Assembly: GCA_016794305.1 (NCBI GenBank) | Contig: JAEUKN010000003.1 | Location: 6,707 to 70,706, forward strand | Length of the DNA: 64,000 bases | Source: Alphaproteobacteria bacterium | GTDB taxonomy: Bacteria > Pseudomonadota > Alphaproteobacteria > Micavibrionales > Micavibrionaceae | Reading direction: 5' to 3' | Part shown: positions 16,562 to 55,924 of the stretch, in pieces | How the letters are laid out: each line of letters starts with the position of its first letter | Numbering within the stretch: position 1 is the first letter of the stretch | Program-made: the position numbers and the translations under genes | Notes under the pieces: generated by a model | Databases searched by the model: none | The model's input: the letters and a program-made list of their open reading frames with translations, nothing else | What the model was told of the DNA's origin: nothing

Positions 16562-18103
16562 TTGAGCAATAGGCAGACAAATAGCATTCATGATCAGATG
16601 ATCCGCGCCGCTCAGCTTGCGCCCCGGCCCGCCCACCGGTTAGCCTCTCGGCCCGCCCCTGGCCTCGCCCCCCGGCCCCCCCCTCTGATGATGGCGCGGT
16701 GGGGCGGGGGGGCTTGGCTTTTCTTCAGTATTTTGTTCATGGCGTGCGGCCTGATGCTCTCCGCGCCGGCTTATGCGTTTATGACGCTCAAGGATATTCC
16801 GCCGCTGACATATGATTTGACCCAAGATGAGGCGCAGCTCAAGTCTTTGATGGAGCCGATTGAGGAAACGCCGATGGATAATAAGGATTTGGCGATGAGC
16901 TTTAGCTTGCCCAAAAACTGGGTGCGCTATGATATGGAGGCCAATAAGGAGGTTTTAAGCGGCGTATCCTCTGAAATGCAGGGAAATGAAGGCAAAAAAA
17001 TCGGATTTGCCAGTAATATTCGCGGCTTTAAAGACTATTCCATCGCGGGCAATCAGGATGGTGATATTTTTAGCATGCTGGTGAAATATACCACGCCGGC
17101 GCGGCTTGAACGGCCCAGTGAGTTTCGGGTGAGGAGCATTGAACTTGATAGTTTGGTCTCGCTCGAAAACTGGTTTATCGAATTTCTATTGCAAATGGGA
17201 TTTACCCCCGAAGGGGTCGAAAAAAAATCCGAAAATCGGCTTGAAGCCCAATATACGATTTTTGAAAATGGCGAGCCTTATTCGGTGCGCGGCGTTTTAA
17301 TGCGCACCGGGTCGCGGATTATTTTGGCGGAATATTTGGTCCATCAGGAAAATATCGAAAAAGACCGTGATTTTCAAATTTTGGCTATGCGTGATTTCAA
17401 ACTCAACCAGATCAACGAAGCCACGCCCGTACAACTGAACAATTATAATTTTGTGGATATTGCCAAGTTTTCCTATCCTAAAAATTGGATTCTCTATTCC
17501 TCTGGAATCAGGACGATTGACCGCATGGAAGCATCCATCATTAACCTGAAAGGTGTTGTAAATCCTGATCAAAAAGCCATCACGGCCATGCAGCTCAATG
17601 GGCGCATTGATATTACAATTGTGTCAAAATATGTCGGAACCACTCCGGAACAAGAGGTCACGGCAATTGGCAATGAATTGAAAAAGCGCGGGCTTATCCT
17701 CAAAGACGCAATGAAGGATGATGATTTTCCCCAACTCAATCCGCAAATTATTTCAAAAAACTTGCTGGTTTATCACATATTACCGCCCAAAGATGATGCC
17801 ATGAAAATCAATCAGTTTTCAGGGGTGCAGAAAAATCGTTTGGGCCTTGTGGACTATGAATATTGGCTGGCGGTGCTGCAAACTGAAGGGCGGCAATATT
17901 ATATTCGGCTTTTGACCATCGGGCGCGGAGAGGATTTCCGGGCATGGTCAGAAAATCTTGAAACTTATAGAACGCTGCTCTCATCCATATCCCCCATTAA
18001 CGATAATGCGCATGAAAACCGGGACTTGCTGACTCAGCCTGCAAAACCCGCAACCTCACCAACTGACTCTAAAACTGATGGGGCCACTCAGGGAGGGGAA
18101 TAG
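16562..18103 (+). CDS. hypothetical secreted or membrane-anchored protein with two tandem ~190-aa domains
   Basis: TTG start at 16562 preceded by GGAGGG (16553-16558); alternative ATG at 16688. Pro/Arg-rich N-terminus, then a hydrophobic segment ending AYA. Internal duplication marked by FSLPKNWVRYD and FSYPKNWILYS. Confidence 0.6.
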   Translation: MSNRQTNSIHDQMIRAAQLAPRPAHRLASRPAPGLAPRPPPLMMARWGGGAWLFFSILFMACGLMLSAPAYAFMTLKDIPPLTYDLTQDEAQLKSLMEPIEETPMDNKDLAMSFSLPKNWVRYDMEANKEVLSGVSSEMQGNEGKKIGFASNIRGFKDYSIAGNQDGDIFSMLVKYTTPARLERPSEFRVRSIELDSLVSLENWFIEFLLQMGFTPEGVEKKSENRLEAQYTIFENGEPYSVRGVLMRTGSRIILAEYLVHQENIEKDRDFQILAMRDFKLNQINEATPVQLNNYNFVDIAKFSYPKNWILYSSGIRTIDRMEASIINLKGVVNPDQKAITAMQLNGRIDITIVSKYVGTTPEQEVTAIGNELKKRGLILKDAMKDDDFPQLNPQIISKNLLVYHILPPKDDAMKINQFSGVQKNRLGLVDYEYWLAVLQTEGRQYYIRLLTIGRGEDFRAWSENLETYRTLLSSISPINDNAHENRDLLTQPAKPATSPTDSKTDGATQGGE

Positions 18104-31254: not shown

Positions 31255-31403
31255 TAAGAACCTGTTCATGATCTCTACTCCGGCGTTGGCTTTTCACGGT
31301 ATTTCTGCGCTTCCGCTTCTCACGTACATCTATGTACGATCCGATGCGGTTCTCGAAAAACCGCAAAAATCCTTAGCCGCAGCGAGATCATGAATAGGTT
31401 CTA
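31255..31403 (+). mobile_element. MITE copy A (~149 bp, palindromic, TA-flanked)
   Basis: Terminal inverted repeats TAAGAACCTGTTCATGATCTC ... GAGATCATGAATAGGTTCTA. Central palindrome cgtacat-ct-atgtacg. No ORF. Four more full copies in the window. Confidence 0.85.
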
Positions 31404-32659: not shown

Positions 32660-32838
32660 TTGAATTTAACCTTTTTGGTGATAGACTGCCCAGTTGTATT
32701 TACAGCATATTTAATTGGTTTTATAGCTTTTTCAATGTATTTTCTGAGAGCCTGTTCACTATCTCGCTAGCTCAAAGAGTTTTACGAATTTTTCATTCCA
32801 ATTTATTAAGGAGTTGGTTTAAGCTGAATTAGTTTTTT

Positions 32839-33045
32839 TAACCGCAGAGACGCAGAGGACACAGAGAGCTTTTTATACATGATGATTTTTTTTCTGCTGC
32901 TCAAAGCAAAAAGAAGTAAAAAAATGAACGCGCAGCGTTCGAAGCGCATACATGATAAAACGTTCTAACTAATTGAATTTAAACAATATTTGTTCCTTAT
33001 GTTTTTCTCTGTTTACTCTGCGTCTCTGTGGTTTTAAAAATTAAG
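32839..33045. repeat. ~207-bp inverted-repeat-bounded element (CTCTGCG-rich arms around a gaacgc-gca-gcgttc hairpin)
   Basis: Left arm ttaaccgcagagacgcagaggacacagagagc is the inverted form of right arm ctctgtttactctgcgtctctgtggttttaaaaattaag. The central hairpin is at 32926-32940. A half copy (hairpin 31557-31571 plus arm 31625-31672) lies on the other side of kdsA. Confidence 0.75.
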
Positions 33046-33170
33046 TCCGCCTTATCTCAAAATATATTCGTAAGGACTCAAAGCAAAAAAGATGATGAAC
33101 AGGTTCTTAGGGGGTTGCCTCAACTTCTATTTTTTTATTTCAGAGTTAAAGATTTCAGGAACATAATTTC

Positions 33171-35927: not shown

Positions 35928-36986
35928 TTAAGCTTTTGCTTGTAGGTCCATTCCTAGCCCCCCGGCCCAAGCAGCTTTGCTGGGAGTCTCTCCGTGAACA
36001 GGGATCTGTATAGGTTGTCGTCCATAGTAGCCGGTATCTCTAGCTATAGATTCACTCATAAAAACGCATGCTATTGCGCGGTTTGCATTTACTTCCTCAC
36101 AAAATCTAGGGTTCGTGGATTCTTTATAAACACGTACAGTTTCAACCACGCCCCCTTTACTGTCTGCGCTTTGATAAAAGCCCGTATCAGGTACAATTAC
36201 CGGGATGCCATTAACTTTTTCGAATTCTTTAGTGACATCCAGCTCCCTAACCAATGGCTCAGGGCCACAAGTATCCAAGTTTTCAGGATCTACAAAACGA
36301 TGAACAACGACAACAGGACCACCGCCAGCTAGTAATTCATTAATTTTGTCAATGGGACTTACAGGAAAATATAATGCCTGCGCTTGGTCAGGATGGCCTG
36401 ATCTCATGGTAGTACTGTCTAATGACGTTATTGGTACGGGGCCGCAACGAACAGTGGCTACCTCTAAAAATGTAGTAGCTAGGGGGAGTTTATAAGGCTT
36501 GCCATCAACCTTAATTTGCGGCTCGTTGTTATCATTTACGCCAAGCTCTCCCCCCTTAATGATGGTCCGTTTCAACACAGTATCAAAACCATCACCACTA
36601 TCTGGTTTAGGCAGAACATCAAAAACGTCGATACCGAATGCCAAAAGAATATCCATAAGATCACGGGATTGAAAAACTCCTTGGGCAAACATACTGACGG
36701 CACAAGGCTTTACGATTTCAGAACGCAAAGCATCCAATAGTTCATTTACGTTGTTTTTAGCATCTGGATCTGGACACCAAAGGTCTAAATTCTTTAGATC
36801 AATACCCAATTGCTTTGCTGCATTGTTTGCTTTGGCCAGGCAATAAGTAACCCTATCCATCCAGCCCTGCTTTGTACAGCGTATCAAAGATTCTATCAAA
36901 GCTCTGCTTTTCCCTAAATCTTGCAATTCTTGTCTTAATTTATTGTTATGATCGTCTAGTTCTCCGCTCATAAGATTTAACTCCAT
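35928..36986 (-). CDS. hypothetical protein (orphan, AT-rich)
   Basis: Clean 352-codon frame. N-terminal coiled-coil-like segment. No catalytic or structural motif recognised. Flanked by MITE-related remnants. Confidence 0.55.
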   Translation of the reverse strand: MELNLMSGELDDHNNKLRQELQDLGKSRALIESLIRCTKQGWMDRVTYCLAKANNAAKQLGIDLKNLDLWCPDPDAKNNVNELLDALRSEIVKPCAVSMFAQGVFQSRDLMDILLAFGIDVFDVLPKPDSGDGFDTVLKRTIIKGGELGVNDNNEPQIKVDGKPYKLPLATTFLEVATVRCGPVPITSLDSTTMRSGHPDQAQALYFPVSPIDKINELLAGGGPVVVVHRFVDPENLDTCGPEPLVRELDVTKEFEKVNGIPVIVPDTGFYQSADSKGGVVETVRVYKESTNPRFCEEVNANRAIACVFMSESIARDTGYYGRQPIQIPVHGETPSKAAWAGGLGMDLQAKA

Positions 36987-42367: not shown

Positions 42368-43348
42368 CTAATTATTATAGGGTTTTGGGTTGTTGCTATA
42401 TGGTTCTAATGGCGGTTCCAATGGCTCTTCCAAATTTTGTTTTTGATCCTGATACGGGTTTTTCGGCGCAGAATTTATGCCCTCCTGCCCGTCTGCTTCC
42501 TCGCCTGCTTGCGGCTCCACCGATATATCCTTCATATCCTTAATCAGTCTATCCAAACCCTTGCGTTCATTGTTCTGATACCCGTCCGCTGCTTCGGGTG
42601 ATTTAGCGCCCTTTTCAGGGGATGACGCAGGTGACCCTTGATCTTCTTTGCCCTGCTGATCAGGGCTTGAGTCTTTGTGATCAGAGCCGTTTTCTTCGCC
42701 TATTTTTTCACCGGTTTTTTCACTCATTTTTTCGGATGGCTTAATGCGTTTATCGCCGAGCAAGTCTAGCTCTAACAATTTCTGCCGCGCATCTTTTTGC
42801 CGCTCTTTATCCTCTTCGGGGTGGTCGGTGGGCAGGTACGACAACATCCACAGAGTTACTTTTTCAATATAGGGAATGGTTTTGGAATGCTCAAACCAAT
42901 CTTTTTTATTGTCATCACTTAAAATCAGATGAAACGGCAGGTAAATCAACCCCAACAAAAACACACCGCGCACGATGCCGAATAAAACCCCCAAAGTGCG
43001 GTCAATCGGCCCAAGCCCAATAGCATGAGCGGAGGAGGAGAGGAAATAGCTTGCGAGTTGCAACGCCAAAAACACCGCGACAAACACGATAAAATAAGCG
43101 GTGGCATCGGCGGCAATATTGGCGGGGATCAGATCGAAAAGTTTTTCCGGCTCTTTCCCCTCAATCACCCCAAACCATTGGTGCGTATAGGGGCGCAGCA
43201 GCGGCCCAAACATAATGGCGGCCAAAACGCCGCCCAAAACACCAAAAATGGTCAAAACTTCGCGAATAAGCCCGCGGTAAAAAGAAACAGCTATTGAAAT
43301 CAACAGGATTACAACAATCCCAATATCAACAAAGGTAGAAATTTCCAT
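42368..43348 (-). CDS. cvpA: CvpA-family membrane protein with a long low-complexity C-terminal extension
   Basis: The N-terminal ~165 aa form a 4-TM CvpA core (DIGIVVILLISIAVSFYRGLIREV...). The conserved cvpA-purF pairing is present. The C-terminal ~160 aa are rich in E/K/D/P/S. Confidence 0.8.
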   Translation of the reverse strand: MEISTFVDIGIVVILLISIAVSFYRGLIREVLTIFGVLGGVLAAIMFGPLLRPYTHQWFGVIEGKEPEKLFDLIPANIAADATAYFIVFVAVFLALQLASYFLSSSAHAIGLGPIDRTLGVLFGIVRGVFLLGLIYLPFHLILSDDNKKDWFEHSKTIPYIEKVTLWMLSYLPTDHPEEDKERQKDARQKLLELDLLGDKRIKPSEKMSEKTGEKIGEENGSDHKDSSPDQQGKEDQGSPASSPEKGAKSPEAADGYQNNERKGLDRLIKDMKDISVEPQAGEEADGQEGINSAPKNPYQDQKQNLEEPLEPPLEPYSNNPKPYNN

Positions 43349-43535
43349 GGATAAACCCCAAAAAGGCCGATATAGGATTAAAAACCTATCCCCAAGCCTG
43401 TTTCCGAATGCTCATTATCTTATTTAAAATTATATGTTTCAAAAAAACTTTGGTAGATCGTTTTGGTCTTGTTACTTGGTATTGTCACGTTGTTAATACT
43501 TTAAAATGCAACAAAAATCAAGGATTGAGCGAAGT

Positions 43536-43640
43536 CTAGAGCATTTTGCGATTAAGTGGAAGCCGGTTAATCGTAACAAAATGCGACAAAACAAATACTT
43601 AGACCATTTTTTCGAGTCTACATAACCGAAAAATGGTCTA
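43536..43640 (-). repeat. 104/105-bp dispersed repeat, copy 2 (inverted relative to 30536-30639)
   Basis: ctagagcattttgcgattaagtggaagccggttaatcgtaacaaaatgcgacaaaacaaatacttagaccatttttt...aaaaatggtcta. Confidence 0.9.
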
Positions 43641-43835
43641 ATAATTTACGCTATTTTGGCGTCACCGAAAAGTGCGAGGGGTTCAAGCCAAAAATTACAT
43701 AAATTACCATATATCGTTAATTAGTCACTAAAGCCGGAGTGGTAAACTGGATAGTGGACATCGTGTATGTGCGATGGGGCCAGTATGGCTGCGAGTATCA
43801 TAAACCTATGAAAACTGTAACGAGAGCGGTATTGA

Positions 43836-46800
43836 GTGTATAGGATGGGGCGAAAGTCTAGGGTTAATTACCTTCGTACAACGGCGTTGAGTGCCCTGAT
43901 CTGTTTAGGCGTAGGGTTAAACTCGGGCGTTGGACCCGCTGTGGCTGCGCCGCAAGACGGGGTGGTGGTGGGCGGAAGTGCCACCATAACCTACACCGGA
44001 CCAAAAACCGATATTCATCAAAGCACACAGCGCGGAATTATTGATTGGCGCGGATTTGATGTGGGAACAAGTGAAACGGTAGAGTTTCATCAACCCAACA
44101 GCACGGCGACAACTCTTAACCGTGTCAACGCTGCCAATCCATCGCAAATTAACGGTCAAATTAAGGCCAATGGGAATGTCATTCTTGTTAACCCCAATGG
44201 CGTGTTTTTTGGGGGAAGCAGCCGCGTGGATGTGAATTCGTTGGTGGTCACCAGCGCGGATATCGCCAATACCGATTTTATGAGCGGCTTAGATCAATTC
44301 TCAATCCCCGGTTCCCCTGATGCCAAAATTATTAATGAAGGCGTGATTACAGCCAAAGAAGGTGGGTTGGTCGGGTTGGTTGCTCCGCAAATTGAAAATT
44401 CCGGATTGATTGAGGCAAAATTGGGTAAGGTGCAGGCCGTGTCGGGCGATACGTTCACACTTGATCTCTATGGCGACGGATTAATCAGTGTGGCCGCGGT
44501 GGGGGATTTGAATACCCAATTGGTAAAAAACAACGCATCGGGCGTAATTCGGGCCGATGGGGGCGTGATTGTGCTTTCGGCTGCGGCGGCGCGTAATAAT
44601 ATTAACAATCTGGTGAATAATGAGGGATTGATTGAGGCCCGCACCATCTCCACTCGCAAGGGTAAGATTATTCTGGGTGGGGCGGAGACTCGGATGGTGC
44701 AAAACACCGGCAAAATTTACGCAACCGGTTCTGCTGTGGAGGATGGCGGGGATATTGAAATTGCGGCAAAATTTGTGGGGTTGGGCGGCGAAGTTCGTGC
44801 GGATGGTCAAAATGGCGGCACAATTCAGATCAAAGCCACCACACTATCTCTGGCGGATCAGATTTCCGCCAAGGGGTTAAACGGCCATGGCGGGACCATT
44901 ACTCTGGATTACAATGATATGTGGGAGACTTCGACGTCCTATCTGAATGTCGATGGCGCAACCAATGGCGGTAAAATCCTCTCTATCGGGTTGGATAATA
45001 TGGTGTCCTCCGGCCATTATTCGGCCCTAGGGCTGGGCGGTAAGGGTGGGCAGATTGATATCACGTCGCCGGGAATCAGGATGCTCTCAACTGAGGTCAG
45101 TGCCTCGGGTAAAACGGCGGGCGGATTAATTCGAATTGGTGGGGAATATCAGGGCGGCAAAGGCTTGCCCGAAGACCAATTACCCAATGCGCAGATTGTA
45201 ACCCTTGATCGCGGCACGCGCATTAAAGCGGACGGGGAAGATGATATCGCCGAGGGCGGTACGGTGATTATTTGGTCGGATATGGATACAATGATGCTCG
45301 GCACAATTTCGGCCATCCCCGGTAAGATTGCGGGGACGGGGGGATTTGTTGAGGTGTCTTCGGGGGATGTCCTAACCTATGGCGGGGATATTCAAACCGG
45401 CAATGGCACAGGCAGCAACACCCGCCCGGGGACAATCCTCTTTGACCCTAAAAATATCGTGATTGCCAGCAGCACCTTTAACCCCACCGCCATTATTATG
45501 GGGCGTGGACACTCCAGCCCCAATGTGGATTTACCGAATTTGAATAATGGTGGCGCCGCCTTTGGTACGACAGTTTCCTTAGATGGTAACCGTATTGCGG
45601 TCGGTATTATTGAAGATAATGGGGCCGATGATAGTACTGGTCGCGCGGGGGCCGTTTACTTATACTCATTCACGAATTCCACATTTTCAGGCGGCGTGTT
45701 AGAGGGAATTATTGGTTATGGGTACGTTGGGCCCAAAAGTATTAATGCTTCGCAGTTGGGGGCTAATGATCAATTCGGGCGATCCGTTTCCTTGAATGGC
45801 AACAGGCTGGCTGTAGGAGCAAATGGAGATGATGGAAATAATAACAGCGTGACCGATTCGGGTGGCGTTTATTTATACAGCTTTAGTGATAGTAGTTTTA
45901 ATGGAGGTGCCCTTCAGGGTCGCATTGGCACCGGTTACTCAGGAACAAGAGATTATAACATGACGGGTGTTCTGGGAAATTCAGACGCATTTGGTTATGC
46001 TGTTTCCCTTGATGGAACCCAGTTGGCAGTGGGGTCTTGGGGTGGTGACGGATATAATAACGCGGTCACGAATTCAGGAGATGTGTATTTATTCAGCTTT
46101 TCAGATATGAATTTTTCGAGTGGGGTATTGCAAGCACGTATTGGACATAATTATACTGGTCCGAAAGACATCAATGTTCAATTAGATACATCTGATTCAT
46201 TCGGCACTGCACTCTCTTTAGACGCCAATCGCCTTGTGGTGGCCGCTAGAAGCGGGGACGGGTTTAATAATACTACAACGAATTCTGGCGAAGTTTATTT
46301 ATTTAGTTTCTCTGATTCCACATTTTCAGGCGGCGTATTGCAGGGGCGGATGGGAAAAGGCTATACCGGTACCAAAGATGTTAATCTTTCTTTGGATGCT
46401 ACAGATGCGTTCGGCTATGGTGTATCTCTAGATGGTAATAGATTGGCCATAGGGTCTTATCAAGATGACGGTAATGCAAATTCTGTTGGGAATAGTGGTG
46501 CTGTGTATCTCTATACATTTACCGATTCTGTGTTTTCGGGTGCTATATTGCAAGGGATTATAGGTAATAATTATGGGATTTTAGGTGGTAAAAATCTTTC
46601 TAGGCCCAATGAGTCTGCCGGCTCGGATCAATTAGGTACAGCCGTCTCACTAGACGGTAACAGGCTTATCGTAGGTGCTGCAGGTGACGATGGGCCTAAT
46701 AATGAAAACACCAATCAGGGGGCTATTCATTTTTATACATTTACCGATTCTAGCTTTGGTGGTGGAGCTTATGCCGGATCCTTAGGAAATTATTACACCA

Positions 46801-49800
46801 ATGCAAATAGTGTGACACTCGCAAAAAACACAGCATCAGATTCCTCGGCTGATAGTTTTATGGTCTCGGTGAATGGTCATCGTATTGCGTTAGGTGTGCC
46901 GTATGATGATGGTTACGGTGATATTTTGGGTGATTCCGGGGCAGTATATCTCTATAGCTTTGCCAGCGATGCCTATGATGGGGCTATTTTGGAAGGGATT
47001 ATTGGTGCTGGTTATGTAGGGCCAAAAAATATCAATATGAGTGCGTATTTAGATAAGTCAGACTTATTTGGATCCTCTGTCTCCCTTGAGGGGAATAGGT
47101 TGGCAGTAGGAGCAAAACAGGACGATGCTTCTGGGAATACAGCATCAAATTCTGGAGCAGTCTATCTTTTCAGTTTTACCGATTCGGTTTTTAGCGGCGG
47201 AGTATTGGAATCACGGCTAGGAAGGAATTACGCCACGGGTAAGAATCTCTCTATCTCTAACATAGGAGGTGGAGATTTCTTTGGGTCTACTGTCTCACTG
47301 GATGGCAATCGCTTAGCCGTTGGTGCCAGTCGTGATGCGGGAAATGCAAATGCTGTTAATGCATCAGGAGCTGTATATTTATTTACCTTCAGTGACTCTG
47401 CATTCTCTACGCCCACCCTAAAAGGTATAATTGGTTATGGCTATTCAAATGCCACTCTCACCGGGAGCTATAATCTATCACAGTTAGGAGCAACTGATCT
47501 TTTTGGCGAATATGGGCTATCATTAGATGGAAACCGTTTGGTTGTGGGGGCGGTCCAGGGGGATGGGTATCTTGATGCGGCTGTTAATAGTGGAGATGTT
47601 TATCTCTTCACATTTTCTGATTCGATCTTCTCTTCGACAACACTGAAAGGTACAATGGGTTATGGATATAGCGGTGCAAACGATATTAATATGAGTGGCT
47701 ATTTAGAGGCTAATGACCGCTTGGCAGGTGTTGCATTAGAGGGTTCGGTTCTGGCACTGGGATCCAGCCGCGATGACGGGTATAACGCTAACTCCGCCAC
47801 AATTACGACTGATAATGGTGCTGTGTTCGTTTACAATTTCGACGATCTTGCCTTCAATAATGGACGATTAGATTTCACAATCGGGAAGGGATTTACGGGC
47901 GGTAAAAACATTGATACGAGTTCTATCGCCAATGATAGCGATTATTACGGATCGAGTATTTCACTAGACCAAGGCACTTTGGTGGCCGGGATATCCAGTT
48001 ACAATGGCTATGGCTCGCGATATGCTAATTCCGGTGGGGCCTTTATTTATCGTGGAAATGCCTATGATCCCGCATCGGGGATGACATTCTCGAATATTAA
48101 TTCTACGACAGTTGGGATCACGCCCAGTGCTTTGGCTGCATTACTCTCTACTCCGCAAAACGTTGTGCTTCAGGCCAATAATGATATTCGGATTGATGAT
48201 GTGTTGACCGTTAATAATGCTTCTGGAAATGGTGGAAACTTAACCTTACAGGCTGGGCGCAGTATTTTGATTAATGCGAATGTGACAACTGATAATGGTG
48301 ATCTGACCCTCTATGCGAACGAAGACTTGGCCACCGGGGTTGTCAATGCGCAGCGTGATGCCGGGTCTGCCGTGATTACGATGGCGAATGGCACAACCAT
48401 TAACGCCGGCACTGGAAATGTGGTGATTAGATTAGAGGATGGCACGGGTAAAACGAATAAGGATAGCGGCTTTGTTACCCTGAACAATATTACCGCTGGA
48501 ACTATTTTCTCGGAAAATATTGATCAAACATCCAGCCTGGTTTTGAATGGTGTGCTAACGGCCAGTGGGGCGGGAACACCTTTGACGCTTGTGGCGGGCA
48601 AGGATTTTATTAACAACTATGGGGCCGGCGCACTGGTTACGCCTGCCGGTCGTTGGCTCATTTACTCCGATCACCCAACTCTGGACACGCTGAATGGATT
48701 AATTGCTGATTTTGAACTCAGAAGTTGTACTTATGGCTCTGGATGCGTACTTGGAACCGGCAATGGGCATTTATATGAATATGGGATGAAAATTATTCGC
48801 GTGAGCGTTAATCTTGAGCGTTATTACGGTGACCCCAACGTGGATAATGCAACTCTGCAATCATTGTTGGTCTATACCGGATTTGAAACAGGGGATAGCG
48901 TAAGTGATTTGGAGGTTCTGCCCACCGCCACAATCTCGGCCACGGCTACTGCCACGGCGGCGGCAGGGACAACCCATCTGATTAATATAGTAGGTGGGCA
49001 TGATACAAAATATGAGCAATATTTGGTGGATCCAAGCTATTTGACCATTCTTAAAAAACCGGTGACCGCGACATGGGTGGCTCCGCTCAGCAAGACTTAT
49101 GGGTCGGCGAATCCTGTGAGCACCTACTCGAATTTTACATTCTCCGGTTTTGCCAATAGTCAAACAGCAGCCGGTGTTAACCCCACGATCGTCATGGATT
49201 ATGGAACTGTGGGAACAAATACAGGGGTCGGCACCTATGCTGCGAATGTGACCTTTACCAGTGCCAATTATGATATTACCGCTTCGCCAACCACCCTCAC
49301 CATTACCCCGAAAAATATCACTGCCAGTTGGGTTGCCCCGCTATCTCGCATCTACGGAGATTCTAATCCAGGGGTCACCACATCTAACTTCACCTATAGC
49401 GGGCTTATTTCGGGCGATACAGGCGCAGCCGTTTCAGCCGCTGCAGATTTCGGCAGCATTACCTCCTCTACAAATGTTGGATCTTACAATGTTGGAGCAA
49501 GTTTTACTTCTGCCAATTATACTGTAACCAATGCCCCAACCACGACACTGACGATCAATAAACGCAATATTACAGCTAGCGTCGATAACGCCTCACGCGC
49601 CTACGGAGATACCAATCCTAGCTTCACGTGGGCGGATGTGACGTGGAGCAATTTAGCAAACGGCGAAGACGGCTCCGTTATTGATTCCCTTACATTCTCC
49701 AGCCCCACCGCAACCGCCACCAGCAATGCGGGAACAACGCACGCATTGAGTATCAGCGGACTGAGTGATAATAACTATAACCTCACAAGCTCAACAGCAG

Positions 49801-51617
49801 GCACCTTAACCATCGGTAAGCGTGATATTACAGCGAGCGTTAATAATGCTTCACGCGCCTACGGAGATGCCAACCCCGTCTTTACATGGGCGGATGTGAC
49901 GTGGAGCAATCTGGCCAATAGTGAGAGCGGATCAGTGTTGGATGCTCTCACTCTTTCTGCTCCAACGGCAACTGCCACTAGCAATGCGGGTACGACTCAT
50001 GCGATTAGCCTCAGCGGATTTAGTGATAATAACTATAACCTTACAGGCTCAACGGCTGGCACCTTGACGATTGGCAAACGCGATATTACGGCCACGGTGA
50101 ATAATGCGTCACGGGCTTACGGAGATACCAACCCTAATCCCACATGGTCGGATGTCACTTGGAATAATCTGGCCAATAGTGAGAATGGATCCGTTATTGA
50201 TATATTTACGCTGTTGGCCCCAACCGCGACCGCCACTAGCAATGCGGGGACAACGCATGCGATTAGCTTAAGCGGCTTTAGCGATAATAACTATAACCTT
50301 ACCGGTTCAACGGACGGAACATTGACCATTGACAAACGCAATATTACGGCCACGGTGAACAATACCTCACGCGCCTACGGAGATGCCAATCCTAGCCTTA
50401 CTTGGGCGAATGTGACGTGGAGCAATCTAGCCAATAGTGAGAGCGGATCGGTGTTGGATGCACTCACACTCTCCAGCCCTACAGCCACGGCGACCAGCAA
50501 TGCGGGCACGACGCACGCGATTAGCCTCAGCGGCTTTAGTGATAATAACTATAACCTCACAAGCTCAACCGCGGGAACATTGACGATCAACAAACGCGAT
50601 ATTACGGCCACGGTGAATAATGCCTCACGAGTCTATGGAGATTCCAACCCTGTCTTTACGTGGGCGGATGTGACGTGGAGCAATTTGGCCAATAGTGAGA
50701 GCGGATCAGTGTTGGATGCTCTCACTCTTTCTGCTTCAACGGCAACTGCCACTAGCAATGCGGGTACTACTCATGCGATTAGCTTAAGCGGATTTAGTGA
50801 TAATAACTATAACCTTACCGGTTCAACGGACGGAACATTGACCATTGACAAACGCGATATTACGGCCACGGTGAATAATGCCTCACGCGCCTACGGAGAT
50901 GCCAACCCGAGCTTGACATGGGCGAATGTGACATGGAGCAATTTGGCCAATGGACAAAATGGATCGGTAATTGACTCACTTACCTTTGCTGCTCCAACGG
51001 CAACTGCCACCAGCAATGCGGGCACCACCCACGCGATCAGTTTAAGCGGCTTTAGTGATAATAATTATAACCTCACCGGGTCAACGGACGGAACATTGAC
51101 GATTAACCAAGCTGCTCTCACCATTCGCGCAAATGATTATACGCTATATGTGAATGACCCATACCCTAGTTTTGGTTATCAAATTTTGGGCAATTTCAAA
51201 AATGGCGAAAATCAAACAATTTTCCTCACTCCGGTTCAGGTCAACGCGCCATCCGCAACGGTTTCAGGAAGTTATGCCATTACGCCGTCCGGAGCCACGG
51301 CATTAAATTATGACCTTAATTTTGTGAATGGGACGCTCACTTTGCTTGATCCTACCAGCGTACCTCCTACGCCACCGCCCACTTCATTTGATTTTTCAAA
51401 TCTTGATGGTTTAACCCGTACGATTGCAGACCCTGAACTTCCGGCTGGTTTTTCAGTAGAATGGCAGGGACTTATAGATCGTCAAGGGCTGGAAATTCCT
51501 TCTGACCTCATCAATATTTTCTATTCTTTCCCTGAAGATGACGAAAATTCGTCCTCAACCATTCTTGTCATTCCTCCTAAGGCAAAATCCGCGGCGCAAC
51601 ATAATTTGGCACTGTAA
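43836..51617 (+). CDS. giant two-partner-secretion (TpsA/filamentous-haemagglutinin-type) exoprotein: TPS domain, FG-GAP-like repeats, beta-helix, MBG repeats
   Basis: 2593 aa (GTG at 43836; alternative ATG at 43845). Signal peptide ...GPAVAAP. TPS domain motifs are GIIDWRGFDVG, TLNRV and ILVNPNGVFFGG. These are followed by ~12 blades of the form FGxSVSLDGNRLAVG...NSGAVYLFSF, a beta-helix-like segment (NLTLQAGRSILINANVTTDNGDLTLYA) and 10 MBG-type domains (...YGDxNP...NYN...GTLTI). Confidence 0.9.
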   Translation: MYRMGRKSRVNYLRTTALSALICLGVGLNSGVGPAVAAPQDGVVVGGSATITYTGPKTDIHQSTQRGIIDWRGFDVGTSETVEFHQPNSTATTLNRVNAANPSQINGQIKANGNVILVNPNGVFFGGSSRVDVNSLVVTSADIANTDFMSGLDQFSIPGSPDAKIINEGVITAKEGGLVGLVAPQIENSGLIEAKLGKVQAVSGDTFTLDLYGDGLISVAAVGDLNTQLVKNNASGVIRADGGVIVLSAAAARNNINNLVNNEGLIEARTISTRKGKIILGGAETRMVQNTGKIYATGSAVEDGGDIEIAAKFVGLGGEVRADGQNGGTIQIKATTLSLADQISAKGLNGHGGTITLDYNDMWETSTSYLNVDGATNGGKILSIGLDNMVSSGHYSALGLGGKGGQIDITSPGIRMLSTEVSASGKTAGGLIRIGGEYQGGKGLPEDQLPNAQIVTLDRGTRIKADGEDDIAEGGTVIIWSDMDTMMLGTISAIPGKIAGTGGFVEVSSGDVLTYGGDIQTGNGTGSNTRPGTILFDPKNIVIASSTFNPTAIIMGRGHSSPNVDLPNLNNGGAAFGTTVSLDGNRIAVGIIEDNGADDSTGRAGAVYLYSFTNSTFSGGVLEGIIGYGYVGPKSINASQLGANDQFGRSVSLNGNRLAVGANGDDGNNNSVTDSGGVYLYSFSDSSFNGGALQGRIGTGYSGTRDYNMTGVLGNSDAFGYAVSLDGTQLAVGSWGGDGYNNAVTNSGDVYLFSFSDMNFSSGVLQARIGHNYTGPKDINVQLDTSDSFGTALSLDANRLVVAARSGDGFNNTTTNSGEVYLFSFSDSTFSGGVLQGRMGKGYTGTKDVNLSLDATDAFGYGVSLDGNRLAIGSYQDDGNANSVGNSGAVYLYTFTDSVFSGAILQGIIGNNYGILGGKNLSRPNESAGSDQLGTAVSLDGNRLIVGAAGDDGPNNENTNQGAIHFYTFTDSSFGGGAYAGSLGNYYTNANSVTLAKNTASDSSADSFMVSVNGHRIALGVPYDDGYGDILGDSGAVYLYSFASDAYDGAILEGIIGAGYVGPKNINMSAYLDKSDLFGSSVSLEGNRLAVGAKQDDASGNTASNSGAVYLFSFTDSVFSGGVLESRLGRNYATGKNLSISNIGGGDFFGSTVSLDGNRLAVGASRDAGNANAVNASGAVYLFTFSDSAFSTPTLKGIIGYGYSNATLTGSYNLSQLGATDLFGEYGLSLDGNRLVVGAVQGDGYLDAAVNSGDVYLFTFSDSIFSSTTLKGTMGYGYSGANDINMSGYLEANDRLAGVALEGSVLALGSSRDDGYNANSATITTDNGAVFVYNFDDLAFNNGRLDFTIGKGFTGGKNIDTSSIANDSDYYGSSISLDQGTLVAGISSYNGYGSRYANSGGAFIYRGNAYDPASGMTFSNINSTTVGITPSALAALLSTPQNVVLQANNDIRIDDVLTVNNASGNGGNLTLQAGRSILINANVTTDNGDLTLYANEDLATGVVNAQRDAGSAVITMANGTTINAGTGNVVIRLEDGTGKTNKDSGFVTLNNITAGTIFSENIDQTSSLVLNGVLTASGAGTPLTLVAGKDFINNYGAGALVTPAGRWLIYSDHPTLDTLNGLIADFELRSCTYGSGCVLGTGNGHLYEYGMKIIRVSVNLERYYGDPNVDNATLQSLLVYTGFETGDSVSDLEVLPTATISATATATAAAGTTHLINIVGGHDTKYEQYLVDPSYLTILKKPVTATWVAPLSKTYGSANPVSTYSNFTFSGFANSQTAAGVNPTIVMDYGTVGTNTGVGTYAANVTFTSANYDITASPTTLTITPKNITASWVAPLSRIYGDSNPGVTTSNFTYSGLISGDTGAAVSAAADFGSITSSTNVGSYNVGASFTSANYTVTNAPTTTLTINKRNITASVDNASRAYGDTNPSFTWADVTWSNLANGEDGSVIDSLTFSSPTATATSNAGTTHALSISGLSDNNYNLTSSTAGTLTIGKRDITASVNNASRAYGDANPVFTWADVTWSNLANSESGSVLDALTLSAPTATATSNAGTTHAISLSGFSDNNYNLTGSTAGTLTIGKRDITATVNNASRAYGDTNPNPTWSDVTWNNLANSENGSVIDIFTLLAPTATATSNAGTTHAISLSGFSDNNYNLTGSTDGTLTIDKRNITATVNNTSRAYGDANPSLTWANVTWSNLANSESGSVLDALTLSSPTATATSNAGTTHAISLSGFSDNNYNLTSSTAGTLTINKRDITATVNNASRVYGDSNPVFTWADVTWSNLANSESGSVLDALTLSASTATATSNAGTTHAISLSGFSDNNYNLTGSTDGTLTIDKRDITATVNNASRAYGDANPSLTWANVTWSNLANGQNGSVIDSLTFAAPTATATSNAGTTHAISLSGFSDNNYNLTGSTDGTLTINQAALTIRANDYTLYVNDPYPSFGYQILGNFKNGENQTIFLTPVQVNAPSATVSGSYAITPSGATALNYDLNFVNGTLTLLDPTSVPPTPPPTSFDFSNLDGLTRTIADPELPAGFSVEWQGLIDRQGLEIPSDLINIFYSFPEDDENSSSTILVIPPKAKSAAQHNLAL
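45550..48055 (+). repeat. intragenic array of ~12 divergent FG-GAP-like repeats (~62-68 aa each); boundaries approximate
   Basis: Counted by the core motifs VSLDGNRIAVG, VSLNGNRLAVG, VSLDGTQLAVG, LSLDANRLVVA, VSLDGNRLAIG, VSLDGNRLIVG, VSVNGHRIALG, VSLEGNRLAVG, VSLDGNRLAVG, LSLDGNRLVVG, VALEGSVLALG and ISLDQGTLVAG. Each is followed by a GAVYL(F/Y)-type strand. Confidence 0.75.
49563..51110 (+). repeat. six tandem 258-bp (86-aa) near-identical MBG-domain repeats
   Basis: The anchor cg(c/t)(a/g)atattac recurs at 49563, 49821, 50079, 50337, 50595 and 50853, an exact 258-bp period. Units read KR(D/N)ITA(S/T)V(D/N)N(A/T)SR(A/V)YGD(A/T/S)NP...TATATSNAGTTHA(I/L)S(L/I)SG(F/L)SDNNYNLT(G/S)ST(A/D)GTLTI. 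Confidence 0.95.
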
Positions 51618-51725
51618 ATATTTTTTGGCTGAAATTAAAATATTTTTAACGAAACCGACGGTAGTATCACCCTATCTGAGTTGCTTGCTGACTCAGATAG
51701 TGGGCTAGTTTATGGTCCTTGCCGC

Positions 51726-51874
51726 TAAGAACCTGTTCATAATCTCTACTCTGGCGTTGGCTTTTCACGGTATTTCTGCGCTTCCGCTTCTCACGTACAT
51801 CTATGTACGATCCGATGCGGTTTTTGAGCAACCGCAAAAATCCTGTGCCATAGCGAGATTATGATCAGGCTCTA
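51726..51874 (+). mobile_element. MITE copy B
   Basis: TAAGAACCTGTTCATAATCTC ... GAGATTATGATCAGGCTCTA. Same internal sequence as copy A. Confidence 0.85.
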
Positions 51875-51967
51875 AGGCCGGAGTATCATTTCGAATTTTA
51901 GTAGTAGTTATATCTTTCTTAAAATCAATCAGTTATCGTAAATTATAACATATCAAAAGGATGTCAT

Positions 51968-52519
51968 TTGCCTATTCAGAAGATCGACTTCAGAGCCTTT
52001 AAAAAATATTTCGCCCCGCATGCGGCGGCGGATTTTAATCTGTTTTTGGAAAAATTGCCGGTGAATGTTGGTAAGCCGGCATTGATTGCGGCGGGCATGA
52101 GTTGGTTTATGGTTGTCTGTCTCGGCTTATTCTGTGTTATGCAGATGAAAAGCCTGACGGATCTACGTTTAGAGGCAAGTAAACAAGACGCCATTAAGCC
52201 CATGATTCCGGTGGTTAAATTAGAGGCCGTTGACCAGAAGTCGGTAAAATCCTTGGTTGATGATATGAAGACAGTCTATCCCGACCTTACATTTTCCCTA
52301 GCCAGCGGCAATTTACTCATCCAATCCAAATCAACCGCAAATTATAGTGAGTTTCGTGAGGCTCTGGGGCATATTGTGAATGCCGGGGCGGGATGGAAAA
52401 TCAGCGTTGATAGTTTATGCGTGGGGCGTGAGTGCAAACAAAACGCATTGGATGCAAAATTAAAAATTCAGAAACTCAAGATTGACAAATTCAACTCATC
52501 GGCTACGATGACAAAATGA
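51968..52519 (+). CDS. hypothetical bitopic membrane protein (possible PilO/GspM-like topology)
   Basis: TTG start 6 nt after AAGGA. About 37 cytoplasmic residues, one TM (ALIAAGMSWFMVVCLGLFCVMQM), then a ~120-aa periplasmic domain. The stop overlaps the next frame (ATGA at 52516-52519). Confidence 0.55.
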   Translation: MPIQKIDFRAFKKYFAPHAAADFNLFLEKLPVNVGKPALIAAGMSWFMVVCLGLFCVMQMKSLTDLRLEASKQDAIKPMIPVVKLEAVDQKSVKSLVDDMKTVYPDLTFSLASGNLLIQSKSTANYSEFREALGHIVNAGAGWKISVDSLCVGRECKQNALDAKLKIQKLKIDKFNSSATMTK

Positions 52520-52539
52520 TTCAAAGTGGGAGAAAAAAC

Positions 52540-53283
52540 ATGACAATCACAACAACTCATCATCAATCGCAACAGGGCAGAACCGGCGAGACCGGAAACG
52601 TGCTGTTCCTCATCCTCATAGCTGTGGCGTTATTTGCGGCGCTTTCTTATGCCGTGACCCAATCTACACGATCGGGGGGAGGGGACGCCAATAACGAAAC
52701 CAACCTTGTGAACTCGGCGCAGATCACGCAATACCCTGCCGGGATTAAAACCTCCATTACCCGCATGATCGTTAGTAATGGTGTGACGGCGGAGGAATTG
52801 GAGTTTAATGCTCCGGCGGCGTTTTCTAGCTTGACAAGTAACAATGTTGGTGTCTTCCACCCTAGTGGCGGCGGTGCGACATACGCCTTTGCCCCTGACA
52901 GCGTAGTTGATACGACGATCAACGCGACGAAAGCTTGGGTGTTTAACACTGAAAATGAAGTTCAAAATATTGGCCAGACGGATGCGACCGCGCCAACCCA
53001 TGACACGGCCGATACAATTGCATTTCTGCCGGGTGTTAAGTTGGCGATTTGTCAAAAAATCCATGCGCAACTTGGCTTGGCAACGACTTTTTCCACCGAT
53101 GAGACCGGGATTAACTACACCACGCAGCAGACGGATGCTGTGGGGACAGCCACTGACCACATCTTAACCAACGCGACGAACGGGACGATTGGGGCTTTGG
53201 CGACTGAACTGGTGGGCCAACCTCAGGGATGCTTCAAGGATGGCACAACCTATGTTTATTACCATGTTTTGATTGAAAGATAA
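52540..53283 (+). CDS. hypothetical protein with a prepilin-like N-terminus (short polar leader ending in Gly plus a 20-residue hydrophobic helix)
   Basis: ATG at 52540 preceded by GGGAG at a 7-nt spacing (alternative ATG at 52516). MTITTTHHQSQQGRTGETG/NVLFLILIAVALFAALSYAVTQS, then a Thr/Ala/Gly-rich ~215-aa domain. No Glu at +5. Confidence 0.55.
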   Translation: MTITTTHHQSQQGRTGETGNVLFLILIAVALFAALSYAVTQSTRSGGGDANNETNLVNSAQITQYPAGIKTSITRMIVSNGVTAEELEFNAPAAFSSLTSNNVGVFHPSGGGATYAFAPDSVVDTTINATKAWVFNTENEVQNIGQTDATAPTHDTADTIAFLPGVKLAICQKIHAQLGLATTFSTDETGINYTTQQTDAVGTATDHILTNATNGTIGALATELVGQPQGCFKDGTTYVYYHVLIER

Positions 53284-53398: not shown

Positions 53399-53547
53399 TT
53401 AGAACCTGTTCATGATCTCTACTCTGGCGTTGGCTTTTTACGGTATTTCTGCGCTTCCTTGTCCAAGTACATCTATGTACGATCCGATGCGGTTTTTGAG
53501 CAACCGCAAAAATCCTGTGCCATAGCGAGATTATGAACAGGTTCTTA
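53399..53547 (+). mobile_element. MITE copy C
   Basis: TTAGAACCTGTTCATGATCTC ... GAGATTATGAACAGGTTCTTA. Confidence 0.85.
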
Positions 53548-55389: not shown

Positions 55390-55539
55390 TTAGAACCTGT
55401 TCATAATCTCTACTCTGGCGTTGGCTTTTCACGGTATTTCTGCGCTTCCGCTTCTCACGTACATCTATGTACGATCCGATGCGGTTCTCGAAAAACCGTA
55501 AAAATCCTGTGCCATAGCGAGATTATGAACAGGTTCTTA
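55390..55539 (+). mobile_element. MITE copy D
   Basis: TTAGAACCTGTTCATAATCTC ... GAGATTATGAACAGGTTCTTA. Confidence 0.85.
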
Positions 55540-55774: not shown

Positions 55775-55924
55775 TAAGAACCTGTTCATGAACTCGCGGC
55801 GGCTAAGGATTTTTGAGGTTTTTCGAGAACCGCACCGGAACGTACATATGAGTACTTGAGGAGTGGAAGCGCAGAAATGCCGCAAAAAGCCAACACCGGA
55901 GCAGAGATCATGAATAGGTTCTTA
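55775..55924 (-). mobile_element. MITE copy E (opposite orientation, more divergent interior)
   Basis: TAAGAACCTGTTCATGAACTC ... GAGATCATGAATAGGTTCTTA. The interior is the reverse complement of copies A-D (ggaagcgcagaaatgccgcaaaaagccaacaccgga). Confidence 0.8.

Follow-up and report, generated by a model that had tools for sequence, protein, structure and literature searches.

A locally orphan two-partner secretion exoprotein with predicted paired FG-GAP propellers and an MBG repeat stalk in a Micavibrionaceae genome

We analysed a 64,000-nucleotide stretch of DNA (the window) from a metagenome-assembled genome (MAG) of an alphaproteobacterium of the Micavibrionaceae (assembly GCA_016794305.1, contig JAEUKN010000003.1, positions 6,707 to 70,706), in which a giant gene, tpsA, encodes an exoprotein of the two-partner secretion (TPS) type with no gene for the partner transporter, TpsB, beside it. 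An open reading frame (ORF) of 2593 amino acids (aa) had originally been predicted at 43836..51617. This 7.8-kb frame is present and intact on the forward strand, although its probable start is the ATG at 43845, which gives a product of 2590 aa and leaves the GTG at 43836 as an alternative start. A sequence-identical protein is already held at NCBI (MBL8639002.1, locus tag JNK24_01475) and begins at the same ATG. The N-terminus, judged from the translation by eye, carries the Sec signal peptide expected of a TpsA (MGRKSRVNYLRTTALSALICLGVGLNSGVGPAVA, followed by AP). The TPS domain of Pfam (PF05860) matches aa 34–291 with an E-value of 4e-35 and 122 bits against a cut-off of 33.5, covering profile positions 3–250 of 252, and the NCBIfam model TIGR01901 matches with an E-value of 4e-22 and 77.9 bits against a cut-off of 29.1. 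Within this region lie the motifs LNRV..NPSQINGQ and LVNPNGVFFG (NPNL-like and NPNGI-like, respectively), and its sequence matches the solved structures of EtpA (8cpk, E 2.5e-49), HxuA (4i84, E 1.7e-29) and HMW1 (2odl, E 2.5e-25). Signal peptide, TPS domain and matches to solved structures are all in place, so that by sequence the protein is a TpsA, and the canonical N-terminus of the original prediction is borne out.

The passenger that follows the TPS domain is composite (Table 1). Alongside the TPS matches, Pfam returned FG-GAP_2 (PF14312, E 5e-58) and MBG_2 (PF18676, E 5e-95), and hidden Markov models (HMMs) derived from the repeats of this protein recognise exactly 12 FG-GAP-like units, each about 71 aa long, at aa 573–1413 and exactly 10 MBG units at aa 1650–2500, in agreement with the roughly 12 blades and 10 MBG domains first proposed. 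A sister MAG (GCA_044228805.1) encodes a homologue (P0002) that is 79% identical to the window protein; the only large difference between the two is that the sister gene has three fewer 86-aa MBG units. Repeat-number variation in such a region is typical of adhesin stalks.

It had been left to modelling whether the FG-GAP region folds into one propeller or two. An AlphaFold2 model of aa 560–1425, made with 22 homologues, has a mean predicted local distance difference test score (pLDDT) of 86.8 and a predicted template modelling score (pTM) of only 0.60, with a dip in confidence at aa 994–1001, exactly between units 6 and 7. Units 1–6 modelled alone reach a pLDDT of 92.5 and a pTM of 0.93. Foldseek ranks integrin alpha propellers first for each of the two models (probability 1.0, E about 1e-13), and the half-model compares to them with a template modelling score of about 0.5 and a sequence identity of 13–16%; the full 12-unit model additionally matches the tandem-propeller protein Elp2. 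Across the homologues (P0001–P0062) the FG-GAP counts are quantised at 6, 12 and 24 (a single unit was probably missed where 11 or 23 were counted), which argues for a six-blade structural module that is duplicated in blocks. Taken together, the model scores, the dip at the linker and the homologue counts indicate two six-bladed integrin-like propellers and not one large ring, and closure of the blades is suggested by the model scores.

Table 1. Features of the tpsA locus in the window, and position of tpsB at the loci of homologous tpsA genes (P, homologues; L, loci).
Feature	Location	Strand	Basis
tpsA coding sequence, 2590 aa plus stop	43845..51617	+	identical to MBL8639002.1
Sec-type signal peptide: basic n-region MGRKSR, hydrophobic core, AVA followed by AP	43845..43955	+	read from translation
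TPS secretion domain, aa 34–291	43944..44717	+	Pfam, NCBIfam, solved-structure homology
EtpA-like beta-helix extension, aa 292–560, with GGxIxI rungs and GGEYQGGKG and GGFVEVSS motifs	44718..45524	+	EtpA alignment
FG-GAP units 1–6, aa 573–993, modelled as one closed six-bladed integrin-alpha-like beta-propeller	45561..46823	+	HMM, AlphaFold2
FG-GAP units 7–12, aa 1005–1413, predicted second six-bladed propeller	46857..48083	+	HMM, 12-unit model, homologue counts
Second beta-helix-like spacer (putative fold), aa 1414–1649	48084..48791	+	homologue consensus NVxLQASNDI..., GRWLxYS
Ten MBG_2 (YGX-type) domains, aa 1650–2500, units 4–9 near-identical	48792..51344	+	Pfam, unit HMM
Tandem DNA repeat, 6 x 258 bp, encoding MBG units 4–9	49560..51104	+	DNA repeat analysis
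Pro-rich linker and C-terminal tail of about 75 aa, without family match	51345..51614	+	dN/dS 0.22
cvpA (Colicin_V production protein), then purF, rph, rdgB, hemW	42368..43348	-	family assignment
Divergent cvpA–tpsA intergenic region, without tpsB remnant, patchily conserved with sister	43349..43844	.	
183-aa single-pass membrane protein MBL8639003.1 (JNK24_01480), at least 90% identity in sister	51968..52519	+	
255-aa protein with N-terminal hydrophobic anchor, conserved in sister only	52516..53283	+	
POTRA_2 and ShlB gene directly upstream of tpsA	P0003 (L002), P0009 (L003/L004), P0013 (L005/L014), P0005 (L081), L009, L018, L027		
tpsB one small gene away from tpsA	P0004 (L080)		
tpsB divergent from tpsA	L015		
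No tpsB nearby	window; sister P0002 (L001); P0014 (L079)		

The claim that no TpsB is encoded in the 64 kb also stands, as does the placing of cvpA upstream on the opposite strand. Each window ORF of at least 450 aa either can be placed in a different family or is plainly no Omp85 protein, and Pfam found no POTRA, ShlB or Omp85 domain in any sizeable ORF of the window. An HMM made from the transporters of 17 relatives was run with filters off on every six-frame segment of the window, together with the sister locus and a right-end Logan contig. Its best E-value was 1.4, so that these loci contain no tpsB, whether whole or as a remnant. The short Logan contigs, found via FtsH, extend the right end by about 4 kb, again without a TpsB. 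A cognate transporter in the same operon, which is usual for a TpsA though not obligatory, is thus lacking in the window and likewise in the sister, whose 27-kb locus contains no TpsB and is fully syntenic (cvpA, tpsA, ORFs of 183 and 247 aa, and onwards to ftsH). Because the orphan arrangement recurs there in full synteny, it is not an assembly artefact.

Among the relatives' loci examined, tpsB stands beside tpsA at nine, directly upstream in seven, a gene away in one and divergent in one (Table 1). A further homologue, P0014 (53% identical), is encoded directly after uvrB on a 1.37-Mb contig (L079; ERZ25038450 NODE_1) with no TpsB signal within 6 kb, and is an independent second case of a local orphan tpsA. 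In a family whose normal arrangement is tpsB–tpsA, the local orphan state is derived and recurs in a minority of members. Other gene arrangements exist among TPS systems, and there are TpsBs that export several TpsAs (PMC5422565).

What follows tpsA on the same strand is, as predicted, a pair of small proteins that are not barrels. The 183-aa and 255-aa ORFs, the stop of one overlapping the start of the other by 4 bp, each have a single N-terminal hydrophobic segment; Pfam and NCBIfam searches with them gave nothing significant, and among all fetched family loci those of the window and the sister alone have them. About 90 bp ahead of the 183-aa ORF (51874–51967) are nearly 100% conserved with the sister, which suggests that this ORF has its own promoter or regulatory element. 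One could suppose, given that no TpsB is seen, that these two membrane proteins or an Omp85 protein of the BamA/TamA type take over export, the pair being just downstream, translationally coupled and conserved with the sister. We regard such non-canonical export as very unlikely, because proteins with one hydrophobic segment each show no barrel-like features or family matches, are missing even from the locus of the orphan P0014, and have a highly conserved upstream sequence of their own; nor is TpsB-independent export of a TpsA described in the review of TPS systems (PMC5422565).

The composite architecture had been thought unusual, and here the original prediction does not hold. A protein search gave 887 matches at E <= 1e-10 (clusters at 90% identity), of which the best 120 were examined by mapping profiles of the TPS, FG-GAP and MBG regions of the window protein onto them. 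Among these best 120 clusters, the order TPS, FG-GAP, MBG is found in 20, TPS followed by FG-GAP in 18 more (several with YDG domains replacing MBG) and TPS followed by MBG in 38; the domain order is common in databases, and its novelty falls. The window protein, with one TPS domain, 12 FG-GAP units and 10 MBG units (T1 F12 M10), is collinear with the subfamily, and P0003, P0004, P0008, P0009, P0011 and P0013–P0015 are collinear with it at 53–59% identity over 86–96% of the query. The number of MBG units varies freely, ranging from 1 to 17 where FG-GAP units are present and up to 24 in proteins with TPS and MBG only. Sources of the homologues include Alphaproteobacteria MAGs, Rhodospirillaceae, Candidatus Berkiella, Sphingomonadaceae, Rhodocyclaceae and Puniceispirillaceae. 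The genomes carrying TpsB relatives are mostly labelled Micavibrio sp. or isolate UWPOB_MICAV1, and these labels tentatively put the window organism with the Micavibrio-like alphaproteobacteria. A literature search found no paper on FG-GAP propellers in a TPS passenger, and searches on the MBG domain and on Micavibrio with hemagglutinin returned nothing relevant; the Micavibrio genome paper treats RTX proteins, not TPS. The subfamily is populous and undescribed rather than rare.

When the window and sister genes are aligned by codon, the ratio of nonsynonymous to synonymous divergence (dN/dS) is 0.062 overall, at a saturated dS of about 2. By region the ratio is 0.079 in the TPS domain, 0.061 in the first beta-helix, 0.034 in the middle helix, 0.067 in the MBG domains and 0.22 in the C-terminal tail. 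On this codon evidence tpsA is under strong purifying selection, and a 7.8-kb frame held open in two species under such constraint marks it as a functional gene. Constraint on the TPS domain argues that a TpsB still recognises it, and this is the main ground for predicting a transporter encoded in trans. Our preferred reading, to which we give a probability of roughly three in four, is that the window encodes a working TpsA adhesin (type Vb) exported by a TpsB whose gene lies elsewhere in the genome. From the sequence we infer the trans-encoded TpsB, the surface display and the adhesive function, the last of these in view of the kinds of domain present and of EtpA, the nearest relative with a solved structure.

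In the mechanism that we propose, Sec would carry the protein across the inner membrane by means of its signal peptide, and the POTRA domains of an Omp85-type TpsB would recognise the N-terminal TPS domain in the periplasm. The unfolded chain would then thread through the TpsB barrel and fold on the cell surface into an elongated fibre, made up in order of the EtpA-like beta-helix, the two propellers, the second beta-helix and the stalk of ten MBG domains. The FG-GAP propellers would probably be ligand-binding heads, and the MBG stalk a length-variable spacer whose unit number varies via the 258-bp tandem repeat. The tpsB gene, no longer beside tpsA in the window lineage, is predicted elsewhere, perhaps shared with a second tpsBA locus.

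Several results weigh against a transporter encoded in trans. None of the search routes used turned up a TpsB for the window genome. A protein search with the TpsB of a relative gave 18 matches and one with the 17-sequence profile gave 17, the profile adding none beyond the first search and none being attributable to the window MAG; recall was poor, the TpsBs of L003 and L005 going unrecovered though both are in the alignment, so that these searches are not evidence of absence. A genome-collection scan with two narrow peptide patterns, drawn from an 8-sequence TpsB alignment, returned 65 loci, none recognisably from the window MAG or its sister, the presence of these two MAGs in the collection being uncertain. 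Furthermore, the conserved ..ALIAITExLKxLFG motif that closes most proteins of the family is here cut off by a stop, so that some ancestral function has changed. In both the window (51590–51720) and the sister (L001, 16950–17060) the stop falls just before the motif and at the same codon (TAA and TGA, respectively), and a remnant of the motif persists in frame between this stop and the next (RHCLVKIFG in the sister, IFFG in the window). The roughly 60 bp past the stop are almost identical in the two genomes despite the saturated coding dS.

The same results could mean that the gene is a stranded relic, its TpsB lost and its product no longer exported across the outer membrane, either decaying or retained in the periplasm. 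Neither the 64 kb nor the sister's 27-kb locus has a TpsB, none was recovered for either MAG in the protein searches or the genome-collection scan, and the truncated C-terminal motif would fit decay. We nevertheless consider a relic improbable: the 7.8-kb frame is intact in two species diverged to a dS of about 1–2, dN/dS is as low as 0.06 for the whole gene and 0.08 for the TPS domain, no TPS consensus residue has been lost, and a gene of such size would not remain open without selection. To our minds it is very improbable that this genome and its sister have no ShlB/FhaC-type TpsB at all and that the protein leaves the cell through a non-cognate Omp85 of the BamA/TamA type or by some other route; were this so, a TpsA kept under strong purifying selection, its TPS domain conserved in full, would be exported independently of any TpsB.

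The C-terminal tail, which is shared with the sister only, at 66% identity, invites comparison with CdiA-like contact-dependent toxins. The last 75 aa would then be the effector and the downstream genes its immunity, and a variable tail (dN/dS 0.22) with small ORFs behind it has that general layout. Yet neither the whole protein nor its last 100 aa matches a VENN/pretoxin or toxin family in Pfam or NCBIfam, the tail is short, and the homologues end in a common non-toxin motif. The downstream proteins, moreover, are membrane-anchored and more conserved than the tail, the opposite of toxin–immunity co-variation, and we think a toxin of this kind most unlikely.

Candidate transporters that surfaced in the searches were assigned to other organisms. 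P0133 and P0134 are both from other MAGs, each with its own adjacent tpsA. A tpsB-bearing contig from another MAG of the same submission batch (L026, JAEUKO010000034.1 of JAEUKO01, 'new MAG-97') was considered as a second contig of the window MAG and rejected as a different MAG. Its accessions (MBL8637962-4) fall about 750 before the inferred JNK24 start, as calculated from JNK24_01480 = MBL8639003, and the P0009 organism has exactly the same RecA; this accession arithmetic and the identical RecA place L026 in the P0009 species. The L026 contig ends inside tpsB. At L003, a locus of the organism with the same RecA sequence as L026, the repeat-rich tpsA comes directly after tpsB. The end of L026 inside tpsB suggests that tpsBA loci break short-read assemblies and that tpsB is easily missing or truncated in MAGs.

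The surroundings of tpsA are otherwise largely housekeeping in character. Beyond the two small ORFs come minus-strand genes for a response regulator and a PAS histidine kinase, and then ftsH, and the remaining window includes gltX, glyS, spoT, parE, rpsA, mutL and pyrH-frr-uppS-cdsA, among others. Aragorn found no tRNA and Rfam no RNA family in the window, and promoter and terminator scans around tpsA gave nothing above shuffled expectation. A 513-aa ORF at 16562–18103 (+) has an N-terminal signal-like hydrophobic segment and no Pfam or NCBIfam match, and is not TpsB-like by profile. Between genes for a HAD hydrolase and pfkB lies a 352-aa ORF (35928–36986, minus strand) without a Pfam match; the two flanking genes are adjacent in the sister, which makes the ORF a lineage-specific insertion. 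The window also holds six copies, all intergenic, of an element of about 146 bp resembling a miniature inverted-repeat transposable element, at 31257–31402, 32747–33107, 51728–51873, 53401–53545, 55392–55537 and 55777–55922. Its 19-bp terminal inverted repeats (AGAACCTGTTCATAATCTC) give 12 matches where 0.01 are expected. Two copies with 95–96% identity directly flank the two small ORFs after tpsA, and the copy after tpsA is missing in the sister genome.

For secretion biology these results change little, adding one more TpsA with its transporter gene probably elsewhere, from a family that is abundant in databases and unstudied. To our knowledge, the characterised TpsA passengers are beta-helical fibres; this family would insert paired six-bladed integrin-like propellers into the fibre and mount it on an MBG stalk. 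A role in prey or host attachment is possible in a Micavibrio-like bacterium, and since the family is concentrated in Micavibrio-like and other small-genome alphaproteobacterial MAGs, it is a reasonable candidate for an attachment device of epibiotic predators. The two independent locally orphan members offer a convenient case for asking how specific TpsB–TpsA recognition is.

The nearest known proteins are the TpsAs P0002–P0016 from Micavibrio-like and other alphaproteobacterial MAGs (for example in GCA_017302165.1, isolate UWPOB_MICAV1), annotated as 'filamentous hemagglutinin family / MBG domain-containing', of whose family the window protein is an ordinary member. They share the order TPS, 6, 12 or 24 FG-GAP units, beta-helix and MBG with the window protein, and are 53–79% identical to the window protein over 78–96% of the query. 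Most of them have a tpsB directly upstream and the ..ITExLKxLFG end, whereas the window and the sister have neither. The propellers of integrin alpha subunits are likened to those of the window protein by its FG-GAP_2 repeats and by the Foldseek match in fold class. They differ in having seven blades, as opposed to the six per domain indicated here by modelling and unit counts, and the window propellers would sit in a predicted bacterial secreted fibre. The best solved relative is EtpA of enterotoxigenic E. coli (PDB 8cpk, 8vba), a TpsA adhesin whose TPS domain and beta-helix rungs align with the window protein at aa 34–310 (E 4.8e-44) and again at aa 390–512 (EtpA residues 257–375). Motifs of the GGxWQGK and GGxVETSS types are common to both, and both are large adhesin-type TpsAs. 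The etpBAC operon encodes, besides EtpA, the cognate TpsB and a glycosyltransferase, and the EtpA passenger is beta-helix along its whole length; the window tpsA, by contrast, has neither gene adjacent, and its passenger carries the two predicted FG-GAP propellers and ten MBG domains. As regards the transporter, the closest parallels are orphan or shared-transporter TpsAs such as Bordetella FhaS, which uses FhaC, and the meningococcal TpsA2/3. Their transporters have been identified by experiment, whereas that of the window protein is predicted from sequence. The arrangement is alike, with a tpsA outside a tpsB operon whose product would rely for its export on a TpsB that is encoded elsewhere or shared.

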